This document shows positions 1,867 through 63,465 of a DNA stretch of 64,000 nucleotides, piece by piece (position 1 is the stretch's first letter; every line of letters starts with the position of its first letter). The position numbers and the translations under genes are program-made. The stretch lies in the IMG/VR virus record IMGVR_UViG_3300044742_000375. One strand, written 5' to 3'. Source of the DNA: a virus. The notes below the pieces were generated by a model. The model was not told where the DNA came from. It did no database searches and saw only the letters and a program-made list of their open reading frames with translations.

Positions 1867-2034
1867 ATGCGACATGATGATATCGTGCTTTCGTTCCTGA
1901 TCGTTTACGACGGTAGTGACGATAGCATACCCTCGCCGGATCAGGATGATTACGATCCGGCCGAACCCCTGGCGCCATACCCCGATGATCACGGTATGGA
2001 CGTGCTTGAATTCTTTCAACGCTACGACCGCTGA
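1867..2034 (+). CDS. small acidic protein (55 aa)
   Basis: below track cutoff; ATG 3 nt after previous stop; MRHDDIVLSFLIVYDGSDDSIPSPDQDDYDPAEP...; GC3 only about 58%. Confidence 0.35.
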   Translation: MRHDDIVLSFLIVYDGSDDSIPSPDQDDYDPAEPLAPYPDDHGMDVLEFFQRYDR

Positions 2035-2041
2035 GCTTACG

Positions 2042-2067
2042 GATAGGCGCGACGCATCGCGCCTATC
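2042..2067 (+). terminator. 11-bp perfect hairpin GATAGGCGCGA-CGCA-TCGCGCCTATC after gene stop
   Basis: read in sequence, 7 nt after stop 2032-2034; no U-run, so terminator function uncertain. Confidence 0.35.
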
Positions 2068-2269
2068 AGCAAGCGCACCGCTCGCGACGGACCGCGCCGA
2101 TACCTGACCGAAAGGAATTGCCATGCGATTATGCTAGCCCGATGGTGCGACACTAACCCGCGAGGGAGCGCACGGGGCTGTAGCGGGCGGCGCGGTCTGA
2201 TCACCCGCGCCGATTGGAACGCACGCCACGGTCTGGCATACGCCACGCCGTCGCGGTGCTTTGATGATA

Positions 2270-2306
2270 GTCCGGCATCGTCACATCGTCGCGATGTCCG
2301 GACTTT
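2270..2306 (+). terminator. bulged 11-bp hairpin followed by TTT in a 347-nt gene-free gap
   Basis: GTCCGGCATCG 2270-2280 pairs with CGATGTCCGGAC 2292-2303 (one bulged T), then TTT. Confidence 0.25.
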
Positions 2307-2381
2307 CATGAGCGCACCGCTCAACGCGGCATCGAATGATCCGCGCGCCTGTCCCAAACCTTACTACCGGAGTGAAACCAC

Positions 2382-3335
2382 ATGGCTAAAATCGTCGAGA
2401 TCGCTTCCGACCGCGTGCTTGACATCGCCTCGCGTATTCGCGCGGCTTGCGTGGCCCTCGCGGAACCCGAGGACCGCAAGTTCGAAGCGATGGAAGCCGC
2501 GCAAGGCGCGGCCAATGACGGCAACAACACCCGGCTGTCCGTCATAACCGACATCGCGGCCATGTCGCACGCGGAGGAATGGACCCACGCGGAAGTGGCG
2601 CAAGCCTGTGAACGCGCCGCGAAAATGGGCAACTCGGCCGACGGCGAACAATCCCGGTCCGCGCGGTCCGTGGGCGTGTTCATATCGGAGATGAAAACCT
2701 TCGCCTCGCCCAAGGTTCGCGGCCACCTGCCCGACCTGCGCGCCACCTGCGAAGCGGTCTGGGCCGACGAAACGGAATTGCTGGCGAGCGTGGAACGCGA
2801 GGACCGCGACGCCATCGAAACGCCCGTGCGCAAGTGGCAAAGCCGATTTTATCACCTGATCATGAACGTCTCACGCGCGGTCAAAGAGGGCAAGCTGACC
2901 GCGCCGATGAGCAAGGACGATCTGATCGCCTACGCGGTCGCGAACGATCCCGACCACAATGCCACGAAAGTGGCCGCGCGGCTCAAAACCCTGATCGGCC
3001 AGATCGACGGTTTTCACGCGGACTTCGAGATGGAAGAGCTCAAGATCGCGGCCGACTACCTGCGCACCATCAGCACCGACGAACTGATGGCCGCGCGCAA
3101 GGCCCTCGTGGCCGCGCGGGCGGCGTTGAACCCGCCTCCGGTGTGGACACCGCCCGTCCTGGTCTCGCCCGCTCCAGCCCCCATCCAGGGCGTGAGTCAG
3201 GCCGATACCGGCGAAGCCGGGAGCGGCGACGAGGTAGCTAACGGTGTGTTTGATTATGAGGACGATATCCTGGGCGATGGCGTGGCGCGTCAACAGGCGA
3301 GTCAGTTGGTCATGGCCGCGCTCGTAGCGGCGTGA
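2382..3335 (+). CDS. hypothetical protein (317 aa)
   Basis: track ORF; ATG preceded by TTACTACCGGAGTGAAACC 2361-2379. Confidence 0.75.
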   Translation: MAKIVEIASDRVLDIASRIRAACVALAEPEDRKFEAMEAAQGAANDGNNTRLSVITDIAAMSHAEEWTHAEVAQACERAAKMGNSADGEQSRSARSVGVFISEMKTFASPKVRGHLPDLRATCEAVWADETELLASVEREDRDAIETPVRKWQSRFYHLIMNVSRAVKEGKLTAPMSKDDLIAYAVANDPDHNATKVAARLKTLIGQIDGFHADFEMEELKIAADYLRTISTDELMAARKALVAARAALNPPPVWTPPVLVSPAPAPIQGVSQADTGEAGSGDEVANGVFDYEDDILGDGVARQQASQLVMAALVAA

Positions 3336-3375
3336 GGTGGTCAATCATTTACTACGGTAGTATGGGAAGCAGTGT

Positions 3376-3431
3376 GCGGGGGATTACGTCCCCCGCTCGC
3401 TTGCTCTAACGCGTGCGTTAGCTCGCACGCG
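3376..3431 (+). terminator. two consecutive GC-rich hairpins downstream of gene 2382-3335
   Basis: GCGGGGG-ATTACGT-CCCCCGC 3376-3396 and CGCGTGCG-TTAGCT-CGCACGCG 3410-3431; weak T-richness after first. Confidence 0.3.
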
Positions 3432-3479
3432 CTAGGCTAGGCGAGCAAATATAACCAACGAGCTAGGGCAAATCGAATG

Positions 3480-3960
3480 ATCCGTTACGCCAGTGCACAC
3501 TAACATTTGTTTGGCGCGCCATGAATGTCGAGTGCTGCCGAATAACTCATTGATCCGACGAGCTATAACTAAGTTTGACAGCGATTTTATCAGGGTCGAC
3601 CGCCTAATAACTTATTGATATTATTAAAATTTATATATAGTATGTTATAACTGATGTATAATTGCATCGGGACAACGATACGTGATGCGTGAGACTTCCA
3701 ATGCATGCATTACGCAATACCCCCCGCTCCCTAAGGGCCTCATGTTTGGAGCAATTATACAGCAGTGATAACATGCCGCGTATGATATCATGTTTGATCA
3801 GTCACTTATTCGGTAGTGAACTCTGTCAAATCCGTGGTCAAGCTTCTCGGAGTTTGACCGTCGAGGATGACATTTTGTCCATAATAGCATATGTCTGACA
3901 CTGACGGGCTGTATCTTGTTATGCACTCCGGTAGTAAACGATCAACCCCAACGTAAGGAT
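3480..3960. other. AT-rich intergenic island (candidate origin and/or early promoter region)
   Basis: hand count 174 G+C in 420 nt (41%) for 3541-3960, 18% for 3601-3660; iteron-like AATAACTNATTGAT at 3541-3556 and 3606-3620, ATAACT also at 3565 and 3647; sigma70-like TTGATA(3615)-17-TAGTAT(3638) and TATAAT 3657-3662. Confidence 0.4.
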
Positions 3961-3970
3961 TTAGCGTACC

Positions 3971-4432
3971 ATGAAGAAACCTGAAACACCCTCTCCGCCG
4001 CCCTTCGAGACCAATACCCCACGCTTCGACGCTAACAATCCCGGTCGCAAGTGTCGCACCTGTAGAGAATATCGGGCCAATAATGACTACGAGTCGCACC
4101 GGCATAAGATCTGTCTCTACTGTAAGGAACGTCGCGTGATGCGCTCGCTACCCGGTCGGGTGAAGTTGCTCGAAGCCGAGCGGAAGGCGAGTGGGGTTCC
4201 GGCGATCACGATGACGTACGAGGGGCGCGCCAAATACCAACGCGACCGCTACCGCGAAAAGCGCGGGCAGAAGGAGATAACCGGCCCTCGGCTCGCCGCC
4301 CGCGTGTGCCGTCGGTGCCATGTGTACAAACCAATCACCGAGTTCCTTACCGATTGGGCGCGCGTCTGCCTCGCGTGCGACAACCCCGAAGCCCGGGCCA
4401 TACGCTGGCGCAACCCACAACTGCCACGTTAA
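3971..4432 (+). CDS. Cys-rich protein with two predicted CxxC...CxxC zinc ribbons (possible regulator)
   Basis: track ORF; CRTC...CLYC and CRRC...CLAC pairs; TAAGGA 12 nt upstream; first gene after AT-rich island. Confidence 0.7.
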   Translation: MKKPETPSPPPFETNTPRFDANNPGRKCRTCREYRANNDYESHRHKICLYCKERRVMRSLPGRVKLLEAERKASGVPAITMTYEGRAKYQRDRYREKRGQKEITGPRLAARVCRRCHVYKPITEFLTDWARVCLACDNPEARAIRWRNPQLPR

Positions 4433-4447
4433 TACGGGAGTGAAACC

Positions 4448-4603
4448 ATGAACTTCGATGACGATGATGACGACTATGACGCCGACAACGATCCCATTGT
4501 CCAGGAATGGGAGAAACGTTTCGAGGGCATGACGCCCGAACAGGTCGACGCCTACATGGAGGCGGCATGGCGGCGGCTGCTGTGCCTGCCGACGTTGCAC
4601 TAA
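4448..4603 (+). CDS. small highly acidic protein (51 aa)
   Basis: below track cutoff; TTAATACGGGAGTGAAACC 4429-4447 then ATG; MNFDDDDDDYDADNDPIVQEWEKRF...; stop is the TAA of the next junction motif. Confidence 0.5.
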   Translation: MNFDDDDDDYDADNDPIVQEWEKRFEGMTPEQVDAYMEAAWRRLLCLPTLH

Positions 4604-4617
4604 TACGGGAGTGAAAT

Positions 4618-4797
4618 ATGGTTACGTATGAAATAACCTGGGTATGCACCGACGAGGACTGGATATACCGGCGTGTCGAGTGCGAGGATTTTCACGCCGC
4701 GTGCGACCTCGCCATGCGGCGCGTGTTCATGGCCGCGTCCAACCCGCACGATAAACTAAAGGACGCGCGGGTGCATCGCATCCAGCGCATCGAATGA
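4618..4797 (+). CDS. hypothetical early protein (59 aa)
   Basis: below track cutoff; TAATACGGGAGTGAAAT 4601-4617 then ATG. Confidence 0.5.
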   Translation: MVTYEITWVCTDEDWIYRRVECEDFHAACDLAMRRVFMAASNPHDKLKDARVHRIQRIE

Positions 4798-4871
4798 TCC
4801 CGCGCGTCGAGCAGGGCCGCACCGCTCTTGGGCGGGGCGAACCGCGAGGTAACTAATACAGGAGTGAAACC

Positions 4872-5057
4872 ATGAGACGTGAACTGAACATCCTCGAAAC
4901 CCTGTTCATCATCGAGCACGAACTCGATCACGCGGACGAGGCTTTCGAGGCGGACGCCAGGAGCGACGGGTTCCGGGCGCTCGGCGCCGCCCGCCACGCG
5001 GTGCGGATACTGCGGACCGTGCTCGACCACGTTTACACCATTCCGGGAGCAGAATAG
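4872..5057 (+). CDS. hypothetical early protein (61 aa)
   Basis: track ORF; CTAATACAGGAGTGAAACC 4853-4871 then ATG. Confidence 0.6.
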   Translation: MRRELNILETLFIIEHELDHADEAFEADARSDGFRALGAARHAVRILRTVLDHVYTIPGAE

Positions 5058-5058
5058 C

Positions 5059-5307
5059 ATGATGACCAGACAACACTACAAGGTGCTTGCCGCGTCCATC
5101 GCCACCATCGAGCACCCGTTGGTCAGGGGTATGGCGGCCAGGACCCTGGGCAAGGCGCTATGCGAGGACAACCCGCGTTTCGACCTCGACACGTGGCTGG
5201 CCGCGTGCGGCGTGGTCCGGTATCGCGACATGCTATCCGACGAGGCGACACCCGCCAGGGTGAAGCGTGCGAAAGTGAAGGCGGCGCTTAATACGGGAGT
5301 GAAATAA
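5059..5307 (+). CDS. hypothetical early protein (82 aa)
   Basis: track ORF; starts 1 nt after previous stop; C-terminus ...LNTGVK encoded by next junction motif. Confidence 0.6.
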   Translation: MMTRQHYKVLAASIATIEHPLVRGMAARTLGKALCEDNPRFDLDTWLAACGVVRYRDMLSDEATPARVKRAKVKAALNTGVK

Positions 5308-5504
5308 TGAACAGCGACGTGACCCAGTTGGCCAACGCCATGCGCCACCAACCCAAACCCCGGCCCAAATCGGTCATCATCCCCATGGCGCTGCCCTGGC
5401 CGTGGCGCAGGTGGACCGCCAGTGCGCTGGGCATGACCCTGATGGTCCTGGGTATATACGGGACCGCGCGCGGGTTCATATGGATAGTGAATTGGTTGTT
5501 ATGA
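5307..5504 (+). CDS. small membrane protein (65 aa)
   Basis: track ORF; TTAATACGGGAGTGAAAT 5288-5305; TAATG overlap; hydrophobic segment ALGMTLMVLGIYG; high GC3. Confidence 0.6.
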   Translation: MNSDVTQLANAMRHQPKPRPKSVIIPMALPWPWRRWTASALGMTLMVLGIYGTARGFIWIVNWLL

Positions 5505-5568
5505 CCAATCGTCCTGGCCGCTTTCACCGCGTATCCAGCCGGTGTTGGACGTGGACAGCCGGACGGGC

Positions 5569-5598
5569 GACCGAACGATACGCGGGAGGCCGGGACGT
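5569..5598 (+). repeat. 30-nt intergenic element GACCGAACGATACGCGGGAGGCCGGGACGT, copy 1
   Basis: exact copy of 5750-5779; followed a few nt later by the TTAATACGGGAGTGAAAC junction and ATG 5623. Confidence 0.85.
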
Positions 5599-5622
5599 CG
5601 ACCTTTAATACGGGAGTGAAAC

Positions 5623-5751
5623 ATGAACGTCATTGACGACAAATTCAAAAAGGACGGAGGTAACATGATGGCGCGGGCCGTGGCGTGGACCGTGGCGTGG
5701 TGCCTCGTCTGGGCCGTGTTTGGTTACCTGGTGGCGGCGATGCTCGGGTGA
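5623..5751 (+). CDS. small membrane protein (42 aa)
   Basis: below track cutoff; TTAATACGGGAGTGAAAC 5605-5622 then ATG; ...RAVAWTVAWCLVWAVFGYLVAAMLG. Confidence 0.45.
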   Translation: MNVIDDKFKKDGGNMMARAVAWTVAWCLVWAVFGYLVAAMLG

Positions 5752-5779
5752 CCGAACGATACGCGGGAGGCCGGGACGT
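5750..5779 (+). repeat. 30-nt intergenic element, copy 2
   Basis: exact copy of 5569-5598; starts within stop codon 5749-5751; followed by junction motif and ATG 5801. Confidence 0.85.
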
Positions 5780-5800
5780 AACTTAATACGGGAGTGAAAC

Positions 5801-6088
5801 ATGAGCATACGTATCGTCATCGAGCACGTGACCGCGACGGTCACCTACGAACTCAAGACCGACGACCCCGCGCACGTCACCGACTTCTTTCGGTGCGCGC
5901 TGGTCGATCACGCGGCGTTGCTCAGGCTGGAGGGCGAGGGCGGCGTGCGCGGTTTCATGGCCCGCGCCACGGTCGAAGCGACGGAGCTACGATGTCGGGT
6001 GCCAGACGGTCGCCACCGTTATGTCGACGGCGTGTGCCCGTGGTGCGACGCCGACCAGGGCTCGATTGATCACGACGGGAGTAAATAA
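5801..6088 (+). CDS. hypothetical early protein (95 aa)
   Basis: track ORF; TTAATACGGGAGTGAAAC 5783-5800 then ATG. Confidence 0.65.
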   Translation: MSIRIVIEHVTATVTYELKTDDPAHVTDFFRCALVDHAALLRLEGEGGVRGFMARATVEATELRCRVPDGRHRYVDGVCPWCDADQGSIDHDGSK

Positions 6089-6089
6089 C

Positions 6090-6263
6090 ATGGTGATACT
6101 GATGGACGAAGTGCTCGCGCTCAAAACGGTCGAGGAGCAGATCGAATTCCTGAAACCCCTGACCATGCGCGAACTAGGCGTGCTGGCGATGGACCCTCGC
6201 TTCCTCCCATGGTTCGAGAGCGTGAGCAAGATACTCGGGGAGGGCGGTGGTCATGATGCTTGA
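6090..6263 (+). CDS. hypothetical early protein (57 aa)
   Basis: in frame with track ORF 6021-6263; CACGACGGGAGTAAATAAC 6071-6089 then ATG. Confidence 0.55.
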   Translation: MVILMDEVLALKTVEEQIEFLKPLTMRELGVLAMDPRFLPWFESVSKILGEGGGHDA

Positions 6264-6381
6264 GTTGACGCTGACGACGTACCTGTTGTTGGCGCAGTGG
6301 CAACCATACGTGTTGCTGCCGCTCCATTTCCCGCCGCAACCGGGCGTCCCGGCATGGGGCGCGCCACCGCCGTGCAAGTGA
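6253..6381 (+). CDS. small hydrophobic peptide (42 aa), first member of a duplicated two-gene cassette
   Basis: below cutoff; GC3 about 83% versus about 61% for the competing frame; TGATG overlap with next gene; MMLELTLTTYLLLAQWQPYVLLPL... Confidence 0.35.
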   Translation: MMLELTLTTYLLLAQWQPYVLLPLHFPPQPGVPAWGAPPPCK

Positions 6382-6638
6382 TGGACTGGTATGTCGGGCC
6401 GGTTTACCCCGAGGATGGCGGGGCGTCGCGCTGGGTGGAGGCGGACACCGGCATCGGCGCCATCGAGGCGTGGCTACGGCTATGTCACGCGGCTGGGTAC
6501 GAGTGGAGCGGGTGTGCGATATCCGCGTGGCCTTCACTCGGCTGGGACGCGTGGCACGAGGACAAACCCGGCGGCGTCATGACGCCCCGGAACTCGCTGG
6601 CCATCATGGCCATCATCGAAACATTACGACAGGAGTGA
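6381..6638 (+). CDS. hypothetical Trp-rich protein (85 aa), paralogue of 6764-7024
   Basis: in frame with track ORF 6297-6638; shares WVEADTG..EAWLRL...AIIETLRQE with 6764-7024. Confidence 0.55.
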   Translation: MDWYVGPVYPEDGGASRWVEADTGIGAIEAWLRLCHAAGYEWSGCAISAWPSLGWDAWHEDKPGGVMTPRNSLAIMAIIETLRQE

Positions 6639-6641
6639 AAG

Positions 6642-6755
6642 ATGGGAAAATTTATTTTGCTACTGCTTGTCGCCAGTTACATCCTTATAACGATGCTGAG
6701 TCCGCCATGGTGCGACGAGCCTTACTGCGCGGACGAAATAGTCGGCGACCGGTGA
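6642..6755 (+). CDS. small hydrophobic peptide (37 aa), second copy of cassette
   Basis: below cutoff; TTACGACAGGAGTGAAAG 6624-6641 then ATG; MGKFILLLLVASYILITMLSPPWCDEPYC... Confidence 0.4.
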   Translation: MGKFILLLLVASYILITMLSPPWCDEPYCADEIVGDR

Positions 6756-6763
6756 ACTGGTTC

Positions 6764-7024
6764 ATGAGCGCCGCATACGTCGGCGGTGACGGCATGCCCG
6801 CGTCCGCCTGGGTCGAGGCCGACACGGCGACGCTCGCGCTGGAGACGTGGCTGCGCGCGTTATACGCGGACGGGTGGCGGTATCCAGGCGGGAGTGTCGC
6901 CGCCATCCCGCTCACGCGCCCAGGCGAGTTTGGGCGCGCGGCCCGGTTCGACGAGACCTCGCCGGTATTGTTGGCGATAATTGAAACCTTACGACGGGAG
7001 AAACCTCGCCGGTATTGCTGGTGA
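6764..7024 (+). CDS. hypothetical Trp-rich protein (86 aa), paralogue of 6381-6638
   Basis: in frame with track ORF 6470-7024; C-terminus extended by the 47-bp tandem duplication. Confidence 0.55.
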   Translation: MSAAYVGGDGMPASAWVEADTATLALETWLRALYADGWRYPGGSVAAIPLTRPGEFGRAARFDETSPVLLAIIETLRREKPRRYCW

Positions 7025-7049
7025 TAATTGAAACCTTACGACGGGAGTG
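6956..7049 (+). repeat. 47-bp tandem duplication of gene 3' end plus junction motif
   Basis: ACCTCGCCGGTATTG(T/C)TGG(C/T)GATAATTGAAACCTTACGACGGGAG at 6956-7000 and 7003-7047; first copy has GGGAGAAA instead of GGGAGTGA, so its stop is lost. Confidence 0.85.
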
Positions 7050-7053
7050 AGAC

Positions 7054-7077
7054 CCGCTCAGCTGGGCTGAGCGGTTT
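7054..7077 (+). terminator. hairpin CCGCTCAGC-TGG-GCTGAGCGG followed by TTT
   Basis: 9-bp stem read in sequence between the small-gene cluster and the AAA+ ATPase gene. Confidence 0.45.
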
Positions 7078-7108
7078 CGAACGACCGGGATCAACAAGGA
7101 GTGAACGA

Positions 7109-8278
7109 ATGAACCTCAATCAGGCTGTACAGGTCATCACGCGCACGCATATCGCGGCGCTGAGCGCGGGCCATCGGGCCAACGCCATCGAACTCAAGTC
7201 GGGCCCCGGCGTCGGCAAGTCCAGCGCCATCGACCAGGTATGCGCTCTGTTGGCGCGAATGCTGAACGAGCCCGTTGGGCTCACCGTCGAGATGCTCGCC
7301 ACCATCCAGAGCATCGACATACGCGGGTTCATGATCCCGCAGAAAACCAGCGACGGTAAGTTGGGCACGATCTTCTCGACCCCGCCATGGTATCCCACCG
7401 CGTTGAATACCATCGTGTTCACGCCCGACGGTAGGAAGTATCTCAAGGGCGAGTGGACCGGACCGACGCCGCGCGTGGGCATCACTTTCCTCGACGAGTT
7501 CGGTCAGGCCGACGACGACTGCAAGAAAGCCGCCGCCGAACTGGTGCTGCATGGCGAGGTGGGCAACACGCGCCTGCCCCAGGGATGGCGCGTCATCGCC
7601 GCCAGCAACCGCCTGAGCGACCGGGCCGGTGTCATGCGCGCGCTGACCTTCGTGACCAACAGGCGGATGGAGATACTCGTGGAGGGCCACCTGCCGACGT
7701 GGAACGATTGGGTGGACGGGCTCGATATCGCCGAACAGCCGCATCACCTGACCGTGAGTTTCGCGAACAAGTCCCCGGACCTGGTATTTCGCGACGCCGT
7801 GCCGCCCGGTGACGGTCCTTTTTGCACGCCGCGCACGCTCGTGCTGATGGACCGGGATCTTCGGGCACTACGTAGTAAAGAGGAGGTGGTTTCGGGTCGG
7901 CTGCCCATGGACGCCGTCGCGCGCGAGGTATGCTCGGGCTGGATCGGCGGCGGCGAGTCCGCGCAGTATTTCACTCACATCAGGTTCGCGGATTTGCTAC
8001 CGGATATCGCGGACATCGAGAAAGATCCCATGACCGCGAAACTTCCCGCCGCGCGTGACGCGCAGATGGTGTGCGCCTATATGTTGGCGCATAACGTCTC
8101 ACCAACCAACGGAGACAAAATCATCAGGTATATCAATCGTCTCAACATCGAGATGCAAACCCTGGCGGTGCAGACCATCACCAAACAGCCCCAGCGGGGC
8201 AAGATGGTGGCGAACTCGCCGATGTTCACGAAATGGCTGATCGACCACAAAGACCTTCTGATCGCGGCGCACGCGTGA
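7109..8278 (+). CDS. MoxR-like AAA+ ATPase
   Basis: in frame with track ORF 7028-8278; ATG after AAGGAGTGAACGA; Walker A GPGVGKS, Walker B ITFLDEF. Confidence 0.85.
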   Translation: MNLNQAVQVITRTHIAALSAGHRANAIELKSGPGVGKSSAIDQVCALLARMLNEPVGLTVEMLATIQSIDIRGFMIPQKTSDGKLGTIFSTPPWYPTALNTIVFTPDGRKYLKGEWTGPTPRVGITFLDEFGQADDDCKKAAAELVLHGEVGNTRLPQGWRVIAASNRLSDRAGVMRALTFVTNRRMEILVEGHLPTWNDWVDGLDIAEQPHHLTVSFANKSPDLVFRDAVPPGDGPFCTPRTLVLMDRDLRALRSKEEVVSGRLPMDAVAREVCSGWIGGGESAQYFTHIRFADLLPDIADIEKDPMTAKLPAARDAQMVCAYMLAHNVSPTNGDKIIRYINRLNIEMQTLAVQTITKQPQRGKMVANSPMFTKWLIDHKDLLIAAHA

Positions 8279-8314
8279 GCCCACGCGATACAACCTTTAC
8301 GACGGGAGTGAATA

Positions 8315-8689
8315 ATGGGACCCAAACCTCTGTCGGCCATGGCCAACATCGCCGCCCAGCTGGCCGCGCACGACGACCACATCGAGGTATATATGTTCTG
8401 GTACGATTTCCGTCGCGACTATACGAAATTTCCCGACGCCGTGCTTGAGTCTCGCTCGGAGTTCCTGAGTTTCTGGGAAGAGGACGTGTTGATGCTGGCG
8501 ACCGGGTTCATCAGAGACGTGATGAACGCGCGGGCCGACGCGCTGGATGCCGCGATTTACGCGTCCGGGGAAAGGCCCTTGTTAGGTGTTCCGCTGGCCT
8601 GTCCGGTCGATGTCGGCGACGTCAACACATGGTTTGACAATGACGACGACTATCAGGGCGGTATCGTGCTTGTCCCGGTATCCCTGTGA
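8315..8689 (+). CDS. hypothetical protein (124 aa)
   Basis: track ORF; TTTACGACGGGAGTGAATA 8296-8314 then ATG. Confidence 0.65.
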   Translation: MGPKPLSAMANIAAQLAAHDDHIEVYMFWYDFRRDYTKFPDAVLESRSEFLSFWEEDVLMLATGFIRDVMNARADALDAAIYASGERPLLGVPLACPVDVGDVNTWFDNDDDYQGGIVLVPVSL

Positions 8690-8717
8690 CTACCGTCGTA
8701 AACAACAGGAGTGAACA

Positions 8718-9653
8718 ATGGATTCTATGAGCACTGCTACCGACGCACCCGTGGATGATACACTCAGGCGCGAGGATCTGACCGAGGCGGTGCGCGCCAC
8801 CGCGCTATTGGCGGATCTCACCATCCACCTGTGGTCCGGCGAGCGCACCGACCGCGCGTTGGGTGATAAGATCAAGAACGCCGAGGGCGCGGTCGGCAAC
8901 ACCGGACGCTACCTCAAGAACCTGCTGGCCGGTTGCGACGTCGAACTGAAGGACGTGAAAGCGTCCTACATGGCCGCGCGCGCCGCGCACTACCAACTCA
9001 CGCTGCCATGGGTGAGCAACGCCACGTCGCAGCGCCAGCAGGGACCCAGATTGCTGCCGAACATGCTGTTCGACCGCTACCTCAACGAGATGAGCAAGCT
9101 GCGGCGCGCGGCCATCGGCAAGCGGGATAATTTCGTGCTCGAATACCCGCGTCTCGTGGCCCAGGCCCAGAACAATCTCGCGGGCATGGCCAAGCCCGAG
9201 GACTATCCCGATCAGGAGGAAATAAGGGCATCGTTCAAACTCTCGTTCGACTTCCTGCCCATCCCCTCGGCGGGGGCGTTCCAGGGCCTGCCGGACGGCA
9301 TGCTGGAGCGCCTGGGTAATCAGCTGAGAGCGCGCCAGCTGGCCGCCGTGAACACCGCCCAGGCGGCCATGTGGGACCGTGTTCGCGAGGCGGTGGACAA
9401 TATGATCGAGCGGCTGGACGACCCGACCGCCATCTTCAAGGTGAACACCATCGACAACGTGCGTGAACTGATCACCCTGCTGCCCGGTTTCAACTGTGCC
9501 GGGGACGACCGGGTTAATACGGTAGTGGCCGATATCGACCGCATGCTGGACGGGATCACGCCGAAAATGCTCAGGCAATCGCAGGAGGCGCGCGCCGACG
9601 TGACACGACAGGCCAAGGCCATCAACGACAAACTCACATCATGGGGATTATGA
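8718..9653 (+). CDS. hypothetical protein (311 aa) between the ATPase and VWA genes
   Basis: track ORF; CAGGAGTGAACA then ATG; no catalytic motif recognised. Confidence 0.7.
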   Translation: MDSMSTATDAPVDDTLRREDLTEAVRATALLADLTIHLWSGERTDRALGDKIKNAEGAVGNTGRYLKNLLAGCDVELKDVKASYMAARAAHYQLTLPWVSNATSQRQQGPRLLPNMLFDRYLNEMSKLRRAAIGKRDNFVLEYPRLVAQAQNNLAGMAKPEDYPDQEEIRASFKLSFDFLPIPSAGAFQGLPDGMLERLGNQLRARQLAAVNTAQAAMWDRVREAVDNMIERLDDPTAIFKVNTIDNVRELITLLPGFNCAGDDRVNTVVADIDRMLDGITPKMLRQSQEARADVTRQAKAINDKLTSWGL

Positions 9654-9654
9654 C

Positions 9655-9900
9655 ATGGTAACGAATGAACGCGCGTCCGGCGGCAGGTTCGGCATGGTGC
9701 TCGCTGGCGGACCCGGCGAGGACAACTGGTACGACATCGTGTTCCACGAGCCGGGGCGGATGGACCGCGTGCTCGCGCGCCGCGCGCTGCACGATGACGC
9801 GGTGACGATAGTGGAAGGACTCAACCTGCGAGATGACCGCCGCAGGTTTTTCGACGCGCACCCCGACGCGAGGGAGTTGCCCATTCCAGGCGTGGAATAA
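9655..9900 (+). CDS. hypothetical protein (81 aa)
   Basis: track ORF; starts 1 nt after previous stop. Confidence 0.55.
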   Translation: MVTNERASGGRFGMVLAGGPGEDNWYDIVFHEPGRMDRVLARRALHDDAVTIVEGLNLRDDRRRFFDAHPDARELPIPGVE

Positions 9901-10061
9901 TGGACGACGATGAAAAACTAATAAACGCGGCTCATGAGTTCGTGGCGAGCATGATGCCGCGAGCGGACAGCTTGCCCTCTTTGACCGCGCGCGAGTGGGC
10001 GCTGCGTGAAGCGTTCATCGCCGGGGCTGTATGGCGAGAGGAAAACTTACGACAGGAGTGA
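9900..10061 (+). CDS. hypothetical small protein (53 aa)
   Basis: below cutoff; TAATG overlap; C-terminus ...NLRQE encoded by junction motif. Confidence 0.4.
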   Translation: MDDDEKLINAAHEFVASMMPRADSLPSLTAREWALREAFIAGAVWREENLRQE

Positions 10062-10064
10062 AAC

Positions 10065-11324
10065 ATGAGACAAGCGAAGCTGACGTCCCAGCAGGAGCAC
10101 GCGCTACAGGTGGCGCGTGTCGCCTTCATGACGCAGAGCCCGTTCTACAGCCACCTCTATTACAGTCTGGGCCGGGAGGTGATAACGCGGGATATCCCGA
10201 CCCTGGCGACCGACGGTCGTAACATTCTCATCAACCCGGATTACTTCTGCGGGTTCCCCGTGTCGAAGCAGGTGTTCATGCTGGCGCACGAGATGAGCCA
10301 TCTGGTGTGCGACCACCCACGCAGGATGACGTCCTACTTCAAGGCGAACAACCTGCGCGGGCTGCCTTACGACCAGAAGCTCGGCAATATCTGCGCCGAT
10401 TACGTGATCAACGCGGACCTGGTCGAGACCGGCGTCGGCGAGATCGACGAGGCATGGCTGTTCGACAAGGACATCAAGGGAAGCGAGCTATGGGAGGACG
10501 TCTACGAGCGGCTGTTCAAACAGGGACCCTGCCCGCCGCCGCCGAAGCGCAGGGGCAAGGGCGCCAGACAGGGCGGGCAGAAGCCCGACCAGCGGGCGTT
10601 GGACGGCGATGGGTCGTTTGACGAGGTTCTGGAGTCCCCCGTGGACCCGGTGACCGGCGAGGTCGATCTGCCCGACGTGAACGAGTTCAGGGAAGCGGTC
10701 GCGCGCGCGGTGAGCGTGGCCAAGGTCATGGGCAAGCTGCCGGGTTCGGTGCAACGTTTGGTTGACGCTATCCTCGCGCCTCAAATCGACTGGCGTGAGC
10801 ATGTGCGGCTGCTTATCACGGGCAAGGTGGGTTACCGGGGCGAGACGTGGACGAAACCCAACCGCAGGCGGCTGGTGATGCGGCCGATAACGATCATGCC
10901 GGGCCGGAACGGGTATGGCTGTAATACGGTAGTGGTCGGCGTGGATACCTCGGGCTCGGTCGGCGGCGACGAGATGAAAGTGTTCATGAGCGAACTGAAC
11001 GGCGTGCTGTGCGATGTGAGACCGAAGCGGATCGTGGTCATAGGGTGTGACCACGACGTCTCTCAGGTCGAGGACGTGTACTCGGTCGATGAGTTCGAGG
11101 CCCTGCGCGAGAAGGGTATCAAGGGTGGCGGCGGCACGCGCTTCGAGCCCGTGTTCGACTACGTGAGAGAGCACGACCTGCGGCCCGAGACGCTGATCTA
11201 TCTGACCGATATGCTGGGTACTTTCCCGACCGAAGCGCCCGCTTATCCGGTCATCTGGGCGGCGACGACGGACGCGAAAGCACCGTGGGGCGATATGGTG
11301 CGGATCAACATCAATCAGGAGTGA
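10065..11324 (+). CDS. VWA-domain protein with N-terminal putative metallopeptidase domain
   Basis: track ORF; HEMSH (HExxH) near N-terminus; MIDAS-like VGVDTSGS; ACTTACGACAGGAGTGAAAC then ATG. Confidence 0.85.
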   Translation: MRQAKLTSQQEHALQVARVAFMTQSPFYSHLYYSLGREVITRDIPTLATDGRNILINPDYFCGFPVSKQVFMLAHEMSHLVCDHPRRMTSYFKANNLRGLPYDQKLGNICADYVINADLVETGVGEIDEAWLFDKDIKGSELWEDVYERLFKQGPCPPPPKRRGKGARQGGQKPDQRALDGDGSFDEVLESPVDPVTGEVDLPDVNEFREAVARAVSVAKVMGKLPGSVQRLVDAILAPQIDWREHVRLLITGKVGYRGETWTKPNRRRLVMRPITIMPGRNGYGCNTVVVGVDTSGSVGGDEMKVFMSELNGVLCDVRPKRIVVIGCDHDVSQVEDVYSVDEFEALREKGIKGGGGTRFEPVFDYVREHDLRPETLIYLTDMLGTFPTEAPAYPVIWAATTDAKAPWGDMVRININQE

Positions 11325-11331
11325 GGGGCGC

Positions 11332-11879: not shown

Positions 11880-11885
11880 AACCAC

Positions 11886-53403: not shown

Positions 53404-53741
53404 GTTAATACCGTAGTGACGTCGGAGGTCGTGTTCACCTGTCCGGCGAGCACCGTGGCGACGTCGCCCCAGGCGTACGTCACCTGCAGATCCCACACCG
53501 ACGAACTGGGCAGTTTCGCCGAGTCGTGCGCCGCCAGCACCATCACCACGGTGTTGGGCACGTTGATCGTGCAGGCCATGCCCGCGATGAACGATCCACC
53601 GCCCCTGTCACGTATTTGCGCCACCACTTTCGCGCCGTTCAGATCGGCGGGCACGGTACGCTCCGTGTCCAGCCACAGCTTGAACCGCCAGCGATACGTG
53701 TCGCCACGGTAGATCAGCAGGGGCATCTTCCCCGGTGTCAT
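53400..53741 (-). CDS. hypothetical tail-associated protein (113 aa)
   Basis: track ORF; ATGA overlaps on both sides. Confidence 0.6.
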
Positions 53742-57253: not shown

Positions 57254-57273
57254 CCGCTGGCCGAAGCCAGCGG
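57254..57273 (-). promoter_or_regulatory. post-capsid stem-loop with UUCG tetraloop (attenuator or RNA-stability element)
   Basis: CCGCTGGC-CGAA-GCCAGCGG on plus strand (loop UUCG on the transcript) between capsid stop 57290 and next start 57239. Confidence 0.4.
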
Positions 57274-57289
57274 TTACTACGGGAGTGAA

Positions 57290-60018: not shown

Positions 60019-60228
60019 TCAACCCTCCTCTTTGAATAACTTCGCGCGCACGGCGGCGTCCTTGGATTCCAGCAGCTTGCGTAGCGCCACGGTGCGCTCC
60101 GGGTTGCGCGGCAGGTCCCTGACCATATCGTCGGCCAACGCGGAAAACCGCTGACTGATCGCCGCGAGATGCGACGGCAGATGCGCGTAGGTGAAAAACT
60201 GCAGAATCCGCTCCGTGACCTCGGGCAT
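60019..60228 (-). CDS. hypothetical small protein (69 aa)
   Basis: C-terminal part of track ORF 60019-60351 from ATG 60228; the upstream extension is Arg-rich and implausible. Confidence 0.5.
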   Translation of the reverse strand: MPEVTERILQFFTYAHLPSHLAAISQRFSALADDMVRDLPRNPERTVALRKLLESKDAAVRAKLFKEEG

Positions 60229-60229
60229 G

Positions 60230-60424
60230 TCAGGTCCCGCAGATGCCGTAGGTGCTGGCTGGCTTCTTCTCCGGGTTCCAGTCCGTGCGGCGGATCGACT
60301 TACCCTTGGGGTAGTGGCGAGATGATCCGGTGGGGCCCGAATTCTCGCCACCCGATCCGCCGCCGGATGCTTTCATGCTGGTACCGGAGCCCGACGACTC
60401 CGTCTTATCGCCTGAATTAACCAT
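60230..60424 (-). CDS. Gly/Ser-rich small protein (64 aa)
   Basis: C-terminal part of track ORF 60230-60637 from ATG 60424; 8-nt overlap with portal stop. Confidence 0.4.
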   Translation of the reverse strand: MVNSGDKTESSGSGTSMKASGGGSGGENSGPTGSSRHYPKGKSIRRTDWNPEKKPASTYGICGT

Positions 60425-62651
60425 GTGGTGCTCCTGATCCTTGTGAGAACGCGTTGAACGACGGTGGCCGGGCGGGTCCCGGCTGGCGTGACTGGCCTCC
60501 CTGGGCCTGGCTCCCGGTTGACGGTCCCGCTGGCCCTTGCGGCCCAGGTGGGCCTTGTGGCGCCTTCTCCTCGCCGGGTTTCGGTTGCTGCTCCTGCCCC
60601 GGCGGACCCGGTGCCGGGGCGCCGACGGACTGGGCATGCGCCTGAACGGCCATTCCCGCCGCCTGGAGGCGCTTCTGGGCGTCCATCTGGGCTTGCAGGG
60701 TCTGGTCGTCGGGCACGATGTCGTCGGGCAGCCCCATGCCCTCGGAGATGGCGCGCAGCAGGCGCGCCCTGCCGATCTCGCCGATGATGGGACCGTCGAT
60801 GGGGTTGGCGGTGATCTGCAGGAACTGTAGCTGACGCTGGCGCTCGGTTTCTTTTTGAGCGGAAACCTTACTCCCCAGGACCTGGACCTGCTCCTGACCC
60901 GTCAACAGGTCCGAGGTATCGGTCAGCATGATCATCTCATGCAGCGCCTCGATCAGCGGCTCCAGGACGTTGGTGTCCACGTTCGCCGCCACGGTCTGCA
61001 ATACCTTGGCGGCGTTGTTCATGAGCATGGACAGGCCCGAGGCGGTACGTCCGGCGCCGCCTGACAGGCTTTCGCCCGTCAGATACCTGGGAATGGCCGA
61101 TTGTTCGTCGGCCATCACGTTCATCGCGTTGATCACACCCAGTAACTCCTGGGTGTTCGACGTGGGTTGGAAGAACGTGACGGGTTCGCGCTGGTTACCG
61201 AGGGGATCGCCCTGCACGTGCCAGCGTTTCCAGGGATACAACTCGTCGCCGTTCTCGGTGGGCGAGACCATCTCGTCGTTGACGATGACCTGGGGGCCCG
61301 AGCTTATCGAGAGGTTGTTCACCAGCGCCCGGTACGCCGCGTTGGCGACCTCCTGGATATCCTCCAGGATATCCGGCAGGGCGTGCCCGGCGATGGTGCC
61401 GGGGACTTTCTCGAAACTGGTGAGATAAAACGGATGGCGTTGCCTTGGAGACGGGTTGATCTGCGTCTTGATGGTCCACCGGCCCACCACCCAACTCTGG
61501 ATCATGTATTCACGGTCCGAATCGGGGATGAGTTTGGGACTCACGCCCTCGTCGAGCAGGGTCTGACCCTGCACGTTGCCGTGGAACTCGATGCCCTCGA
61601 TGTACTGAGATCTATTAAGGCTAGGATCTTCCCGACCTTCGTTGATGGCCTGCTCCGGGTCCGGCGCGTCCAACCACTCGCGTAACCCATGCGCGTAATC
61701 GGTCAGCGCGTTCCTCACGGCGGGCTCGTCATAGCCGGGCACGCCCAGCACATCGTTCAGATCGGCGCGCGTGTATCTCACACGCTGGATGATGGCCGCG
61801 TCGGACAGCGCCGAGGCGCCGGGGGACCAGTAGATATCGAACGGATTGACCCGTTCCCAGAACATCACCGGCTTGTTCTGCAGGCTGGGTCGCTTATCCA
61901 GCCAGGTCAGCCGGGGCACCATGCGCACCACGGGACCTTTCATCACCGCGTAGGGGAACAAAGGCAGATCTTGCAGGAATTCCCCCATGGCCTCGTAAAA
62001 ACCGCCCGCCTGGAGGATATCGTCCATCTTGTCGGTCGCCGCCTGGGCCTGGGTCATGGCGTTGCGGCGCGACGCCTGTTGCGCGGCGTGCAACAGGTTC
62101 ACGTAGCGCATGTGAACCTGGTTCTCCTCGACCGGCTGACCCGCCATCTGGAGCGTCTGGACCTCGGTGGATATCAACTGGAGTATGCTGGTGCGTATCT
62201 CGGGCGGGATCGGCGGGTCGGCGATGGCCCGGAGTTGCCACGGGCGCTCGGTGCCCAGGTAGACATCCCTGAGCAAGGCGGTGGCGCCGCGACATTTATT
62301 CGCTACCTGCCTGGAATAGACCTCCGAGCCACCAAAAGCCTGGATCTGGGACAGTTTCTCGGCGTCGTACTTGCCCTCGAACATGCGTTGGGCGCGCAGG
62401 AGCCGCTGATTGAGCGGATTATTACCCTGATTGCGATGGTTTCTGAATATGAACCATTGCTGGCGTATCCAGGACCCCAGATCGGGCGTCTCCAGGCGTT
62501 TGGAGCCGCTTATTCTTCGAGTATTCGCCTCCTGGTCGCGTCGGTCCAGTTGCGAGGGGGAGATGACACGCAGGAAGCCGCCGTTGTCGCCCGCCGAGCG
62601 CGCCTGGGCGGGGTAAGACGACGATGACAAACCTGCTTGGGCCAATGGCAA
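60417..62651 (-). CDS. portal protein
   Basis: track ORF (744 aa); TTG start 8 nt after GAGGGGG; conserved-looking GRTASGLSMLMNNAAK region; first gene of the virion arm. Confidence 0.88.
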   Translation of the reverse strand: MPLAQAGLSSSSYPAQARSAGDNGGFLRVISPSQLDRRDQEANTRRISGSKRLETPDLGSWIRQQWFIFRNHRNQGNNPLNQRLLRAQRMFEGKYDAEKLSQIQAFGGSEVYSRQVANKCRGATALLRDVYLGTERPWQLRAIADPPIPPEIRTSILQLISTEVQTLQMAGQPVEENQVHMRYVNLLHAAQQASRRNAMTQAQAATDKMDDILQAGGFYEAMGEFLQDLPLFPYAVMKGPVVRMVPRLTWLDKRPSLQNKPVMFWERVNPFDIYWSPGASALSDAAIIQRVRYTRADLNDVLGVPGYDEPAVRNALTDYAHGLREWLDAPDPEQAINEGREDPSLNRSQYIEGIEFHGNVQGQTLLDEGVSPKLIPDSDREYMIQSWVVGRWTIKTQINPSPRQRHPFYLTSFEKVPGTIAGHALPDILEDIQEVANAAYRALVNNLSISSGPQVIVNDEMVSPTENGDELYPWKRWHVQGDPLGNQREPVTFFQPTSNTQELLGVINAMNVMADEQSAIPRYLTGESLSGGAGRTASGLSMLMNNAAKVLQTVAANVDTNVLEPLIEALHEMIMLTDTSDLLTGQEQVQVLGSKVSAQKETERQRQLQFLQITANPIDGPIIGEIGRARLLRAISEGMGLPDDIVPDDQTLQAQMDAQKRLQAAGMAVQAHAQSVGAPAPGPPGQEQQPKPGEEKAPQGPPGPQGPAGPSTGSQAQGGQSRQPGPARPPSFNAFSQGSGAPHG

Positions 62652-62739
62652 CGGATTTGCCCCCTCTATGAACTACCATTAGCGTATAAATCGCTTATGT
62701 GGCAACCATATAGCGGGTCAACCCCCCGCGAGGACCACC

Positions 62740-63465
62740 ATGGGTAGCGAAACCAACCCTTTCGGTGCCTGGATCAGGCATGAAAAACCCATGCTGGTGT
62801 CCGAGACGCCAGTGGAGATGGATATTACTACCGGAGTGAACGACGAATACGGGTTGAGCGCCGCCGCATCCGCCGAAGGCGGGGCGAAGGGCGAGGTGGA
62901 TGAAGAGGAGCGGGCGGACCAGGAGGTGATCAATGGGGTCGTCGACGCCACGTCCGTCCTCGCCGAGGTTCCGGCTTTCACGCCCCAGGTATTATATGCG
63001 TTTTGTACCGACGTGGCCCAGAATGTGCACACCTACGCGCAGATCGCCCTCAGGTATGGGTTCGTCGACGTGGCGCAGATGGCGGAATTTCTACGCGATC
63101 AGCACGTCATCCGCAGGCGTATCAAGGAGTACAAGGCGGTCTGGGAAAGCGACACCAACGTACGCGAGCGGATACGCGAGCTATCTGGTCACGCGGTGCT
63201 GGCGGCGCTGCCGACGACGGCTCAGATCATGCTGGACGCCAAACAACCGGCGAACACCCGCATCGACGCGGTGAAGCAGCACGCGATCATGGCCGGGGCC
63301 CAGGCGAGCGGGATCGGCGCGGCGGCGGGCGCGGGTGGCGGTCCGAGCGCCGCCAGGTTCTCCATCCAGATCATGTTCGCCAATTCGGGCAAGACCGAGA
63401 CGTTCACCACCATCCAGGCCGAACCCGCGAAACCGGACGACCGCGACATCGTCGTTCCGCCCTGA
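62740..63465 (+). CDS. hypothetical DNA-binding-like protein, possibly small terminase subunit
   Basis: track ORF; GAGGA 7 nt upstream; divergent from portal; HTH-like YAQIALRYGFVDVAQMAEFL; function is a guess. Confidence 0.55.
   Translation: MGSETNPFGAWIRHEKPMLVSETPVEMDITTGVNDEYGLSAAASAEGGAKGEVDEEERADQEVINGVVDATSVLAEVPAFTPQVLYAFCTDVAQNVHTYAQIALRYGFVDVAQMAEFLRDQHVIRRRIKEYKAVWESDTNVRERIRELSGHAVLAALPTTAQIMLDAKQPANTRIDAVKQHAIMAGAQASGIGAAAGAGGGPSAARFSIQIMFANSGKTETFTTIQAEPAKPDDRDIVVPP

Follow-up and report, generated by a model that had tools for sequence, protein, structure and literature searches.

What is a 15-base near-palindrome doing when it recurs about 45 times across one phage genome, inside genes, between them and fused to ribosome-binding sites? 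The question is raised by the dyad TTAC(G/T)AC-S-GT(A/C)GTAA in IMGVR_UViG_3300044742_000375, a 64,000-nucleotide stretch of viral DNA that we refer to as the window. We find that the dyad is a genuine, conserved and clade-specific element. Its copies are tentatively read here as duplex-DNA operators for a protein that recognises their sequence, is probably a dimer encoded by the phage and would act at junctions, a reading to which we give somewhat less than an even chance.

With a G+C content of 62.6%, the window resembles most of a podophage-type genome, with an early and replication arm on the plus strand (~1100-24691) and a virion arm on the minus strand (24708-62630). Among cultured phages, the nearest to it are the Rhizobium phages of the RHph_TM3_14A group (capsid identity 63%), represented here by RHph_TM3_14A itself (MN988472.1, loci L081 and L082; RHph below). 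Closer uncultivated relatives in IMG/VR are contig A (loci L001, L090 and L117), contig B (loci L002, L094 and L116) and, more widely, loci L083-L118.

Enrichment of the dyad

The dyad had been proposed in a sequence-only reading of the window, and all sequences quoted there proved to be present where it placed them. Searching with the consensus TTACKACSGTMGTAA gave 0, 10, 27 and 44 matches at up to 0, 1, 2 and 3 mismatches, respectively, against 0-0.01, 0.005-0.03, 0.15-0.48 and 1.9-4.0 expected from simulations with Markov models of order 1-5. The strict consensus is never matched exactly, every site having at least one mismatch. Comparison with codon-shuffled controls, a check suggested with the proposal, left the strictly in-gene matches (6, 14 and 22 at up to 1, 2 and 3 mismatches) far above the 0.05, 0.5 and 3.6 found in 300 synonymous-codon shuffles. 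The 12-mer whose recurrence had been remarked upon, TTTACGACGGTA with its complement, does occur four times against 0.003 expected under an order-2 Markov model. A single family supplies every one of the 8-12-mers that are most over-represented in the window, namely the ribosome-binding-site (RBS) cassette TTA(C/A)(G/T)AC(G/A)GGAGTGAAA and its relatives TACGACGGTAGT, ACTACGGTCGT (n=4) and ACTCCGGTAGT (n=5). Relatives have 1-8 matches per 10 kb, compared with 0.06 per 10 kb in loci from distant phages (957 kb in total).

That the copies arose by chance, or merely follow from codon usage or a recurring peptide, could be suspected from the T-T-V-V peptide that is found at three sites and from the few variants that are weak and unconserved (43739, 7866 and 31016). 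However, the Markov and synonymous-codon controls are surpassed 20- to 1000-fold, all three reading frames are used and the word is lacking from distant phage loci. Chance is refuted for the core site set, and we leave it next to no probability as an explanation. Some of the listed variants are weak, namely 43739, 7866, 31016, 11459 and in part 51168; among these, 43739 (in most comparisons) and 7866 lack conservation in relatives. At 51168, a coding match for which chance had been suggested, the site is kept in close relatives and lost in L112.

Retention of sites within genes and at junctions

Sites within genes use all three reading frames and rare codons, as in T CAC GAC CGT AGT AAA of the primase-helicase gene and AC(T/G) ACG GT(C/A) GTA at 16343. 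They make up 0.47% of codons, yet account for 12% of the TTA codons, 11.6% of the GTA codons and 10% of the ACT codons. Conservation in related phages, which had been put forward as a check for the in-gene sites, was assessed in 40 orthologous comparisons with flanks at most 92% identical. A motif-compatible word is kept at the orthologous position in 24 of the 40, compared with 13.6 expected by neutral drift, an excess that is indicative and carries no formal probability because the comparisons are not phylogenetically independent. Since the motif is kept while raw identity is no higher in the sites (0.79) than in their flanks (0.81), the sites drift within motif space. Relatives retain sites (e.g. 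53405, 45468, 16343 and 21689) while drifting in this way, flipping their orientation (1905), or switching between a Shine-Dalgarno (SD) type with GGAGT and a T type with GTAGT or GTCGT. We take these comparisons as showing selection at the DNA level; in line with the sequence-only reading, the motif is not accounted for by ribosome-binding function.

Eight of the 29 sites that are not of SD type are no more than 30 nt from a gene boundary, where 2.9 would be expected (binomial p ~0.01; the 29, the 8 and the 2.9 come from a hand count of the site-position table), among them 24689, 57274, 32870 and 3349. Three copies had been described as directly following stop codons. The sites at 8687 and 24689 do overlap stops, while that at 14775 lies 24 nt past the stop of a small open reading frame (ORF) and 12 nt before the next start.

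Half-sites, folding and orientation

A logo was built from 65 unique T-type sites, and the pairing of half-sites was analysed in 197 unique sites from the clade. In the logo, t-TTA-(C/A)-(G/T)-AC-S-GT-(A/C)-GT is strong and the last two bases carry little information. The proposed two-sided symmetry thus holds as a near-palindrome with unequal halves, the left TTA and the core being strong and the final AA weak, an asymmetry that arises partly from the orienting of the sites. Read from the outside inwards, the half-site is TTA-(C/A)-(G/T)-(A/C)-C, and two such halves converge on a single central G or C. Four main types are found among the 197 sites: TTACTCC (plus TCACTCC), TTACGAC, TTACTAC and TTAATAC. 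They pair approximately as independent draws, the sole clear exception being a depletion of TTACTCC/TTACTCC.

An RNA or DNA hairpin, whether a terminator or an SD-sequestering stem, was considered and rejected. No Watson-Crick covariation was found across the 197 sites: positions 5/11 fit independence exactly, and Watson-Crick pairs are depleted at positions 6/10. Window sites have a mean folding energy of -1.8 kcal/mol, compared with -1.5 kcal/mol for shuffles. With no compensatory changes and a stability near that of shuffles, the dyad is therefore not a hairpin; it reads as two separately recognised half-sites on duplex DNA.

Sites occur in both orientations on both arms of the window, and the directional core TTA[CA][GT]AC[CG]GT[AC]GT is found eight times on the plus and six times on the minus strand. 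Clade-wide, T-type sites are sense in 10 cases, antisense in 28 and symmetric in 18, a count that is phylogenetically redundant. Of the three hypotheses first offered for the dyad (an operator of a dimeric DNA-binding protein, a recombination hot spot, or a nick or modification site), the operator fits best with orientation-independent sites, independent halves and no hairpin covariation.

Shine-Dalgarno cassettes and the dyad

The left half is common to the dyad and the RBS cassette, as had been noted at the outset. A TTACTCC half-site reads GGAGTAA on the other strand and can therefore serve as a Shine-Dalgarno sequence as well. Sixteen SD-type cassettes have their GGAGT half in the sense orientation 3-6 nt before an ATG, and they are almost confined to the early arm. 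On the plus strand these are 1099-1113 (before gene 1117), 1386-1400 (gene 1404), TTACTACCGGAGTGA at 2361-2375 (gene 2382), 4429-4443 (gene 4448), 4600-4614 (gene 4618), 5288-5302 (gene 5307), 5605-5619 (gene 5623), 5783-5797 (gene 5801), 6070-6084 (gene 6090), 6624-6638 (the ATG at 6642), 8297-8311 (gene 8315; identical in L001), 10047-10061 (gene 10065), 11865-11879 (gene 11886), 17619-17633 (gene 17637) and 19570-19584, which lies between the SNF2 helicase gene and gene 19589 and has a counterpart in an RHph dyad at the end of its SNF2 gene. The late arm has only one, TAATTACGGGAGTAA at 46307-46321 on the minus strand, before gene 46075-46302.

Within coding regions, GGAGT halves are sense in 36 and antisense in 39 cases clade-wide. 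The two words are also exchanged at a gene start: the T-type site TTAATACCGTAGTGA (53405-53419, plus strand) occupies the SD position of the 2243-aa fibre gene, whose start is overlapped in an ATGA, and its orthologues are TTACGACCGTCGTAA in L091 and, in L090, TTACTCCCGTCGTAA, a true SD-type cassette on the gene strand. On these comparisons, halves of the GGAGT and GTAGT types can stand in for each other as variants of a single element, antisense strand included.

Could the element instead work in translation, with the cassette as an extended initiation signal that the ribosome or an RNA-binding regulator recognises, and the dyads lacking SD function as decayed or by-product copies? The uniform sense orientation of the 16 cassettes, their fixed spacing and their near-confinement to the early arm would all fit, as would the swap of SD-type and T-type words at the fibre gene start. 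A precedent exists in the Start-Associated Sequences (SAS) of cluster K mycobacteriophages, which are likewise placed and whose reader is likewise not known (PMC3203893). What such a reading leaves aside is that T-type sites without GGAG occur in both orientations relative to transcription and are kept at orthologous in-gene positions, that coding-region GGAGT halves are antisense as often as sense, that different lineages conserve antisense junction sites such as 57274, and that there is neither hairpin nor covariation. SAS-like placement, an SD-core word 3-7 nt before the start in one orientation, is found for the 16 cassettes and not for the remaining ~29 sites; taken together, the element is therefore not an SAS. 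We consider an RNA-level role unlikely.

Cassette-like words also occur twice without a start codon, at 6989-7003 and 7036-7050 (both plus strand). They belong to a 47-bp tandem duplication at 6953-7046 (94% identical), each unit of which ends in the cassette TTACGACGGGAG; a GC-rich hairpin and then the ATPase gene follow the second, and a degenerate copy of the repeat lies at 6588-6634.

Dyads in related phages

RHph has a scattered dyad of its own, TTACC[TC]-N3-5-[AG]GGTAA, in 22 copies that are not annotated in its record. The exact form TTACCT-N4-AGGTAA occurs 13 times against 0.001 expected. Its outer TTAC...GTAA is that of the window, and its right half is RHph's own SD word AGGTAAC. The copies (e.g. 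at record positions 5844, 12719, 45676 and 54423) include sites 1 nt from the end of the capsid gene, in the convergent gap at terL and where the arms meet; others are found upstream of the giant gene, at the SNF2 gene end and before several starts as SD-type sites. On the sense strand the T..G and C..A forms, which are mutual reverse complements, are about equal by inspection, so G-U wobble is not favoured. Because the RHph dyads could fold (-6.6 kcal/mol) and those of the window cannot, the property that they share is duplex dyad symmetry.

The same dyad type as in RHph is present in L125, L126, L129, L130 and L135, on contigs binned with Bradyrhizobium, Xanthobacteraceae and others, while other lineages have ACTAC-N-GTAGT (L136) or TTGCTC-N4-GAGCAA (L124). 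In L125, L136 and L149 a dyad lies directly behind the capsid stop. By this comparison of words and positions, related phages share this class of element while using another dyad word.

A separate case was seen in an unrelated phage group, L119-L121, in which the perfect palindrome GGAAGT-N-ACTTCC recurs ~25 times per 16 kb (L119:686-13210, also L120 and L121), within genes, between genes and directly abutting start codons.

An operator reading and its precedents

How might such sites work? In the operator reading, the ribosome-binding sites of early genes would be built into the operator, ~16 early or replication genes carrying the fused cassette, and ~20-29 further operator copies would stand in either orientation at gene junctions and within genes on both arms. 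The bound protein may act as a roadblock or boundary element, like mycobacteriophage L5 stoperators, and would thereby control read-through where genes and transcription units adjoin, namely behind the capsid gene, where the two arms converge, where the giant gene begins and ahead of every early cistron.

Stoperators are reportedly the 13-bp sites of the repressor gp71 in mycobacteriophage L5 and cluster A (Brown et al. 1997), and they offer a precedent for many protein sites that block elongating RNA polymerase. Like the window dyad, they are a short family-specific word in dozens of copies on both arms. Stoperators often overlap start or stop codons in short intergenic gaps; in the window, the 16 cassettes at starts and 8 of the 29 non-SD sites are near gene boundaries. 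They are asymmetric, have one orientation relative to transcription and are almost all intergenic, whereas the window dyad is near-palindromic, uses both orientations, lies within genes at 21 of 29 non-SD sites and is fused to Shine-Dalgarno sequences. No gp71-like repressor or lysogeny module was seen in the window. Stoperators have been named among transcription-regulation elements in the same study that describes the cluster K SAS, an SD-core word 3-7 nt before the ATG of non-structural genes that is conserved past rRNA pairing (PMC3203893). There, the associated inverted repeats, termed ESAS (extended SAS), are held to be protein sites as their departures do not support RNA pairing (PMC3203893). 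SAS are non-palindromic, almost always in one orientation and bound to starts; unlike them, the window word family also occurs without GGAG, antisense, in genes and on the structural arm. The element is closest in kind to stoperators and SAS/ESAS, yet it is palindromic, orientation-free and maintained in genes.

A third comparison is with partition-type sites, palindromes of 13-16 bp scattered over a replicon being a feature of ParB/parS and KorB/OB systems that is also present here. KorB operators (OB, TTTAGCSGCTAAA) are found on plasmid RK2, and prophage N15 has dispersed centromere sites; about a dozen copies over a ~60 kb replicon are bound by a dimeric ParB-family protein. The likeness includes an odd-length palindrome, a central S, TTTA...TAAA ends and dispersal, with some sites far from promoters. 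The differences are that the ParB_N-like match of the window is below the Pfam cut-off, that no partition ATPase was found and that the sites overlap ribosome-binding sites. A cognate ParB would be expected wherever such sites occur; the gene is missing at its syntenic position in the motif-rich contig A, as far as that contig is covered, and contig B has it as a recently exchanged module.

If a protein reads the sites, one word would give compact whole-genome control, its 15 bp serving as ribosome-binding site, operator and junction marker while limiting codon choice in essential genes. Stoperators and SAS, whose readers and roles are as yet only partly understood, would thereby gain a counterpart that is palindromic and independent of orientation. 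A bolder proposal is a family-wide system with the operator inside the ribosome-binding site, in which the lineage words have diversified along with their reader as a specificity or immunity code. The words are TTAC-KAC-S-GTM-GTAA in the window, TTACCT-N4-AGGTAA in Rhizobium- and Bradyrhizobium-associated phages, and ACTAC-N-GTAGT and TTGCTC-N4-GAGCAA in others. In that case a dyad half-site would be the phage's own Shine-Dalgarno word, one factor would gate all early cistrons and flag the borders of transcription units on the two arms, and the lineage-specific words would provide a natural system for DNA-binding specificity co-evolving with dozens of targets. We rate this wider proposal as unlikely. 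The cultured RHph carries the cognate dyad, and the question is thus directly testable. The dyad words also serve as markers to classify uncultivated phage contigs and to correct gene starts.

Candidate readers

Which protein might read the sites? The first candidate, gp11332-11760 (plus strand, 142 aa), is predicted to have a long N-terminal helix and a C-terminal winged helix-turn-helix (wHTH). Its Pfam matches to MarR_2 and IclR HTH domains are below cut-offs, its family alignment has an invariant wHTH core, and Foldseek searches with its AlphaFold2 model gave generic wHTH matches (E>0.004). Homologues at 39-41% identity occur in the L119-L121 group, which has its own dense palindrome. A second candidate, at 3971-4432 (plus strand), is a putative reader of 153 aa, basic (36 K+R, 17 D+E) and with four CxxC pairs; it is conserved in L001 (79%) and L097 (36%), has no family match, and its ORF was missed by a codon-score gene caller. 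A homologue search with gp24308-24691 returned four proteins only.

The ParB_N-like gene (14802-15848) matches Pfam ParB_N at E=1e-4, below the cut-off, and its best PDB match is Spo0J (E=0.005). Together with a 165-aa gene (14710-16500 for the pair), it has 93-99% protein identity to contig B while its neighbours have 69-77%, and this two-gene module looks like a recent horizontal exchange. We rejected ParB as the reader on its absence from the contig A syntenic position and on the lack of a BLAST homologue in L119-L121. The product of g308 (8727-9653) was also rejected, having homologues in many distant phages without the motif.

Searches of PDB sequences with four candidates gave nothing significant, and Pfam and PHROGs searches of ~45 proteins found no HTH or Cro-like protein among small early ORFs. 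Hidden Markov model (HMM) and phmmer searches of RHph for wHTH142, wHTH127, Zn153, g317, g271 and the ParB-like protein found none.

Several observations weigh against the operator reading. No reader protein was found by family, PDB and structure searches of the candidates. A homologue of gp11332-11760 was not found in RHph by HMM and phmmer searches, and its recognition helix is nearly invariant between phage groups with different palindromes; for these two reasons its link to the sites is suggestive only. The ParB_N-like gene is missing at the syntenic position of the motif-rich contig A, of which ~7 kb is not covered. Unequal information in the two halves is unusual, being atypical of a homodimer site. 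Of the 29 non-SD sites, 21 lie deep in genes, far from junctions, where a transcription regulator has no obvious job. Finally, with all 16 cassettes in the sense orientation and at a fixed distance from the start codon, a translation-level role is at least as natural for the cassettes.

Nicking, modification, recombination and promoters as possible alternatives

Besides the RNA-level role, nicking or modification and recombination are possible and less supported than the operator reading. The sites could be targets of a phage nuclease or DNA-modifying enzyme, either nicked as in T5, phiKMV and tf or subject to sequence-directed modification; the enzyme could be a PD-(D/E)XK nuclease, a VRR-NUC-like protein, or a pair of PAPS-reductase-like and ParB_N-like proteins. 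Genes for a PD-(D/E)XK nuclease, a PAPS-reductase-domain protein and the ParB_N-like protein are present in the window, and a palindrome fits an enzyme working on both strands. A scattered, conserved, family-specific word in and outside genes also typifies nick motifs (PMC11780129). Those known in Pseudomonas phages, phiKMV-like CGACxxxxxCCTA/CTCCGG and tf/LUZ24-like TACT/RTGMC, are short clade-specific conserved words in and between podophage genes, non-palindromic and restricted to one strand (PMC3517423, PMC11780129). The window dyad, in contrast, shows no strand bias, with 8 directional cores on the plus and 6 on the minus strand, and is tied to ribosome-binding sites, a link that nicking or modification would leave unexplained. 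The resemblance to the phiKMV nick consensus that had been pointed out in the sequence-only reading did not survive a count: CGACNNNNNCCTACTCCGG gives 8 matches at 3 mismatches and none better, compared with 9.9 +/- 3.2 in shuffles, the tf motif TACTRTGMC gives none, and the sub-word TACTCCGG, which is present in some variants of the dyad, occurs 3 times against 1.4 expected. No methyltransferase was found in the window, and the lack of the ParB_N-like gene at its syntenic position in contig A tells against that protein here too. Nicking as such fails on strand and consensus, and a modification of both strands is conceivable. We regard a nuclease or modification target as distinctly unlikely.

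As a recombination or module-shuffling signal, the boundary words would promote exchange of gene cassettes, much as in the PeSL of T4-type phages. PeSL are said to be mobile regulatory cassettes of ~50-70 bp made up of a promoter plus a stem-loop and only intergenic (Arbiol et al. 2010). As there, a regulatory word precedes many small early ORFs in a plastic region and block boundaries match the repeats; unlike PeSL, the unit in the window is 15 bp, has no stem-loop and is conserved within core genes too. Blocks of homology between the window and contig A do often begin or end at cassettes (2357, 6075, 8677, 10044, 16339, 17623 and 53405). Cassettes sit at gene starts, however, where block ends would be expected regardless. 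The ParB_N-like module is bracketed by the sites 14775 and 16343, but at base level its left edge is ~40 nt upstream of 14775 and its right edge fades gradually beyond 16343, and the conserved core-gene sites 21689, 40960 and 13385 are within continuous homology blocks. Recombination hot spots, the second of the original hypotheses, thus retain weak support at best, and we judge this explanation quite improbable.

A promoter or start signal of a phage-specific transcription system is suggested by a resemblance of the word to the KP34 RNA polymerase promoter TAATGTTACAGGAGTA and to the complement of the phiKMV nick consensus. Cassettes stand before nearly every early gene, and cassettes such as TTACGACAGGAGTGA have TTAC...AGGAGT in common with the KP34 strong promoter (PMC6834552). 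Against this, many sites follow stop codons or lie in convergent gaps, and the sense orientation has no majority (28 antisense to 10 sense T-type sites in the phylogenetically redundant count, and 36 sense to 39 antisense GGAGT-type halves). No RNA polymerase or sigma-like gene was detected among the proteins searched. A promoter is very improbable.

Two further resemblances were set aside. TTACGAC and CTACGGT resemble the complement of 16S rRNA helix 44/45, which we put down to coincidence, as these rRNA segments are base-paired. In the case of the alphaproteobacterial CtrA box (TTAA-N7-TTAA), the conserved inner ACSGT would fall in the unspecified spacer of CtrA.

Individual sites and their orthologues

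On the early arm, the T-type site TTACGACGGTAGTGA (1905-1919, plus strand, one mismatch) corresponds to a flipped dyad at the orthologous site of L088 and L091. The next, TTACTACGGTAGTAT (3349-3363, plus strand), is 13 nt past the stop of gene 2382-3335, is followed by a strong GC-rich hairpin and reads TTAATACGGTAGTAT in L088. It belongs to the 635-bp non-coding region 3336-3970, which also holds a GGAGT-type site on the minus strand (TTACTACCGGAGTGC, 3923-3937) that forms a 21-nt inverted pair with the flank of 1905, and a weaker half-site match at 3805. This region, 70% identical in contig A, is very AT-rich in its core (3580-3800), contains an inverted repeat of 24 nt (3642-3665 / 3751-3774) and may be an early promoter region or an origin.

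The stop-overlapping site at 8687-8701 (TTACGACGGTAGTCA on the minus strand) covers the TGA of gene 8315-8689, with the SD of the next gene just downstream. Within genes 8727-9653 and 10065-11324, respectively, are the plus-strand sites TTAATACGGTAGTGG (9514-9528; TTAATACGGTCGTAA in L001) and GTAATACGGTAGTGG (10921-10935, three mismatches; GTAATACCGTAGTAG in L001). The site TTACTACGGTCGTAT at 13385-13399 (no strand assigned), inside the DNA polymerase gene, reads TTA CTA CGG TCG TAT with rare Leu codons, and corresponds to TTACTCCGGTCGTAT in L001 and TTACTACGGGAGTAT in L002. Upstream of the ParB_N-like start, the site at 14775-14789 (TTACGACGGTAGTAG on the minus strand) is identical in L002. 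Codons 2-6 of the PD-(D/E)XK nuclease gene contain the minus-strand site 16343-16357, for which the changes in L001 (GCACGACGGTAGTAA) and L002 (GCACGACGGTCGTAA) are synonymous and inside the K/M degeneracy. In the primase-helicase gene, TCACGACCGTAGTAA (21689-21703, minus strand) is identical in L001, where flanks are 87% identical, and has GTCGT for GTAGT in L002, where they are 77% identical. The minus-strand site at 24689-24703 occupies the 16-nt gap between the convergent arms, overlapping the TAA stop of the last plus-arm gene, and RHph has a dyad at the homologous junction.

The gene for the 2549-aa protein has a minus-strand site at 26578-26592 (one mismatch, compared with close relatives only), the plus-strand sites TTACTACCGTCGTTG (30161-30175, two mismatches) and TTAATACGGTAGTAT (32870-32884), the latter 22 nt into the gene and matched by an RHph dyad at its giant-gene start, and the weak plus-strand site TTACTCCTGTAGTAT (31016-31030, three mismatches, compared with near-identical relatives only). 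A GGAGT-type site in the PAPS-reductase-like gene (TTACTACGGGAGTAT on the minus strand, 36759-36773) is identical in L117 and L112 (flanks 84-90%) and absent from L113-L116. Two sites fall within the internal virion protein gene: TCACGACCGTCGTAT (40046-40060, plus strand), partly conserved as TTACTACCGTCGTAT in L117 and degraded in more distant loci, and TTAATACGGTCGTAA (40960-40974, minus strand), identical in L112-L116 with flanks of 80-83% and lost in L117. The dyad TTACTACGGAAGTAA (45468-45482, no strand assigned) in gene 45017-45691 has the orthologues TTACTCCGGTAGTAA or TTACTCCGGAAGTAA with flanks of 77-90%, and the dyad-like TTACTACCGGATTAA (46033-46047, plus strand, two mismatches) was compared with a close relative only. 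Weak plus-strand sites in fibre genes are TTACTCCGGTAGTGG (43739-43753), with three mismatches to the strict consensus and possibly chance, and TTACTCCGGTATTAT (51168-51182).

Directly past the capsid stop, a GGAGT-type site on the plus, i.e. antisense, strand (57274-57288) adjoins a hairpin at 57255-57273. Relatives have TTTACGACGGGAGTAA and L103 the T-type TTTACGACCGTCGT, and the position is homologous to that of RHph 5844 and of the dyads in L136 and L149. The last GGAGT-type site (62825-62839, plus strand), within gene 62740-63465, has no start codon after it; the site is also found in L101 and L108 and is missing from L085 and L086.

Genome context

Products of the early and replication arm include a MoxR-like ATPase, a DUF2201/VWA protein, DNA polymerase A, a PD-(D/E)XK nuclease, an SNF2 helicase and a DUF927 primase-helicase, and those of the virion arm the 2549-aa polyvalent protein, an SLT-domain protein, an internal virion protein, fibres, a capsid protein and a portal. 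A megablast search of 6.8 kb of the window against GenBank phages gave no match, Rfam and tRNA scans over the window found nothing, and sigma-70 promoter and terminator scans of positions 1-20000 stayed at shuffle level with no link to the dyad sites.

A 47-nt inverted repeat (130-176 / 4806-4852, 81% complementary), its arms 4.6 kb apart, flanks the first early-gene block, and an exact 21-bp direct repeat GGATGATCCGCTTTCGTATCG occurs at 181-201 and 217-237 (36 bp spacing) within a small minus-strand ORF at the window start. The PAPS-reductase-domain protein (36126-36881, minus strand; PF01507, E=1e-13) is encoded amid virion genes; with the ParB_N-like protein it recalls the pairs of the IbrA/IbrB type known from prophages. 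Capsid homologues with 55-69% identity are present in L124, L130, L132/L133 and L139, and one Pseudolabrys contig carries the capsid homologue twice. Because these homologues sit on bacterial contigs of 137-465 kb, some members of the phage family may be integrated prophages.

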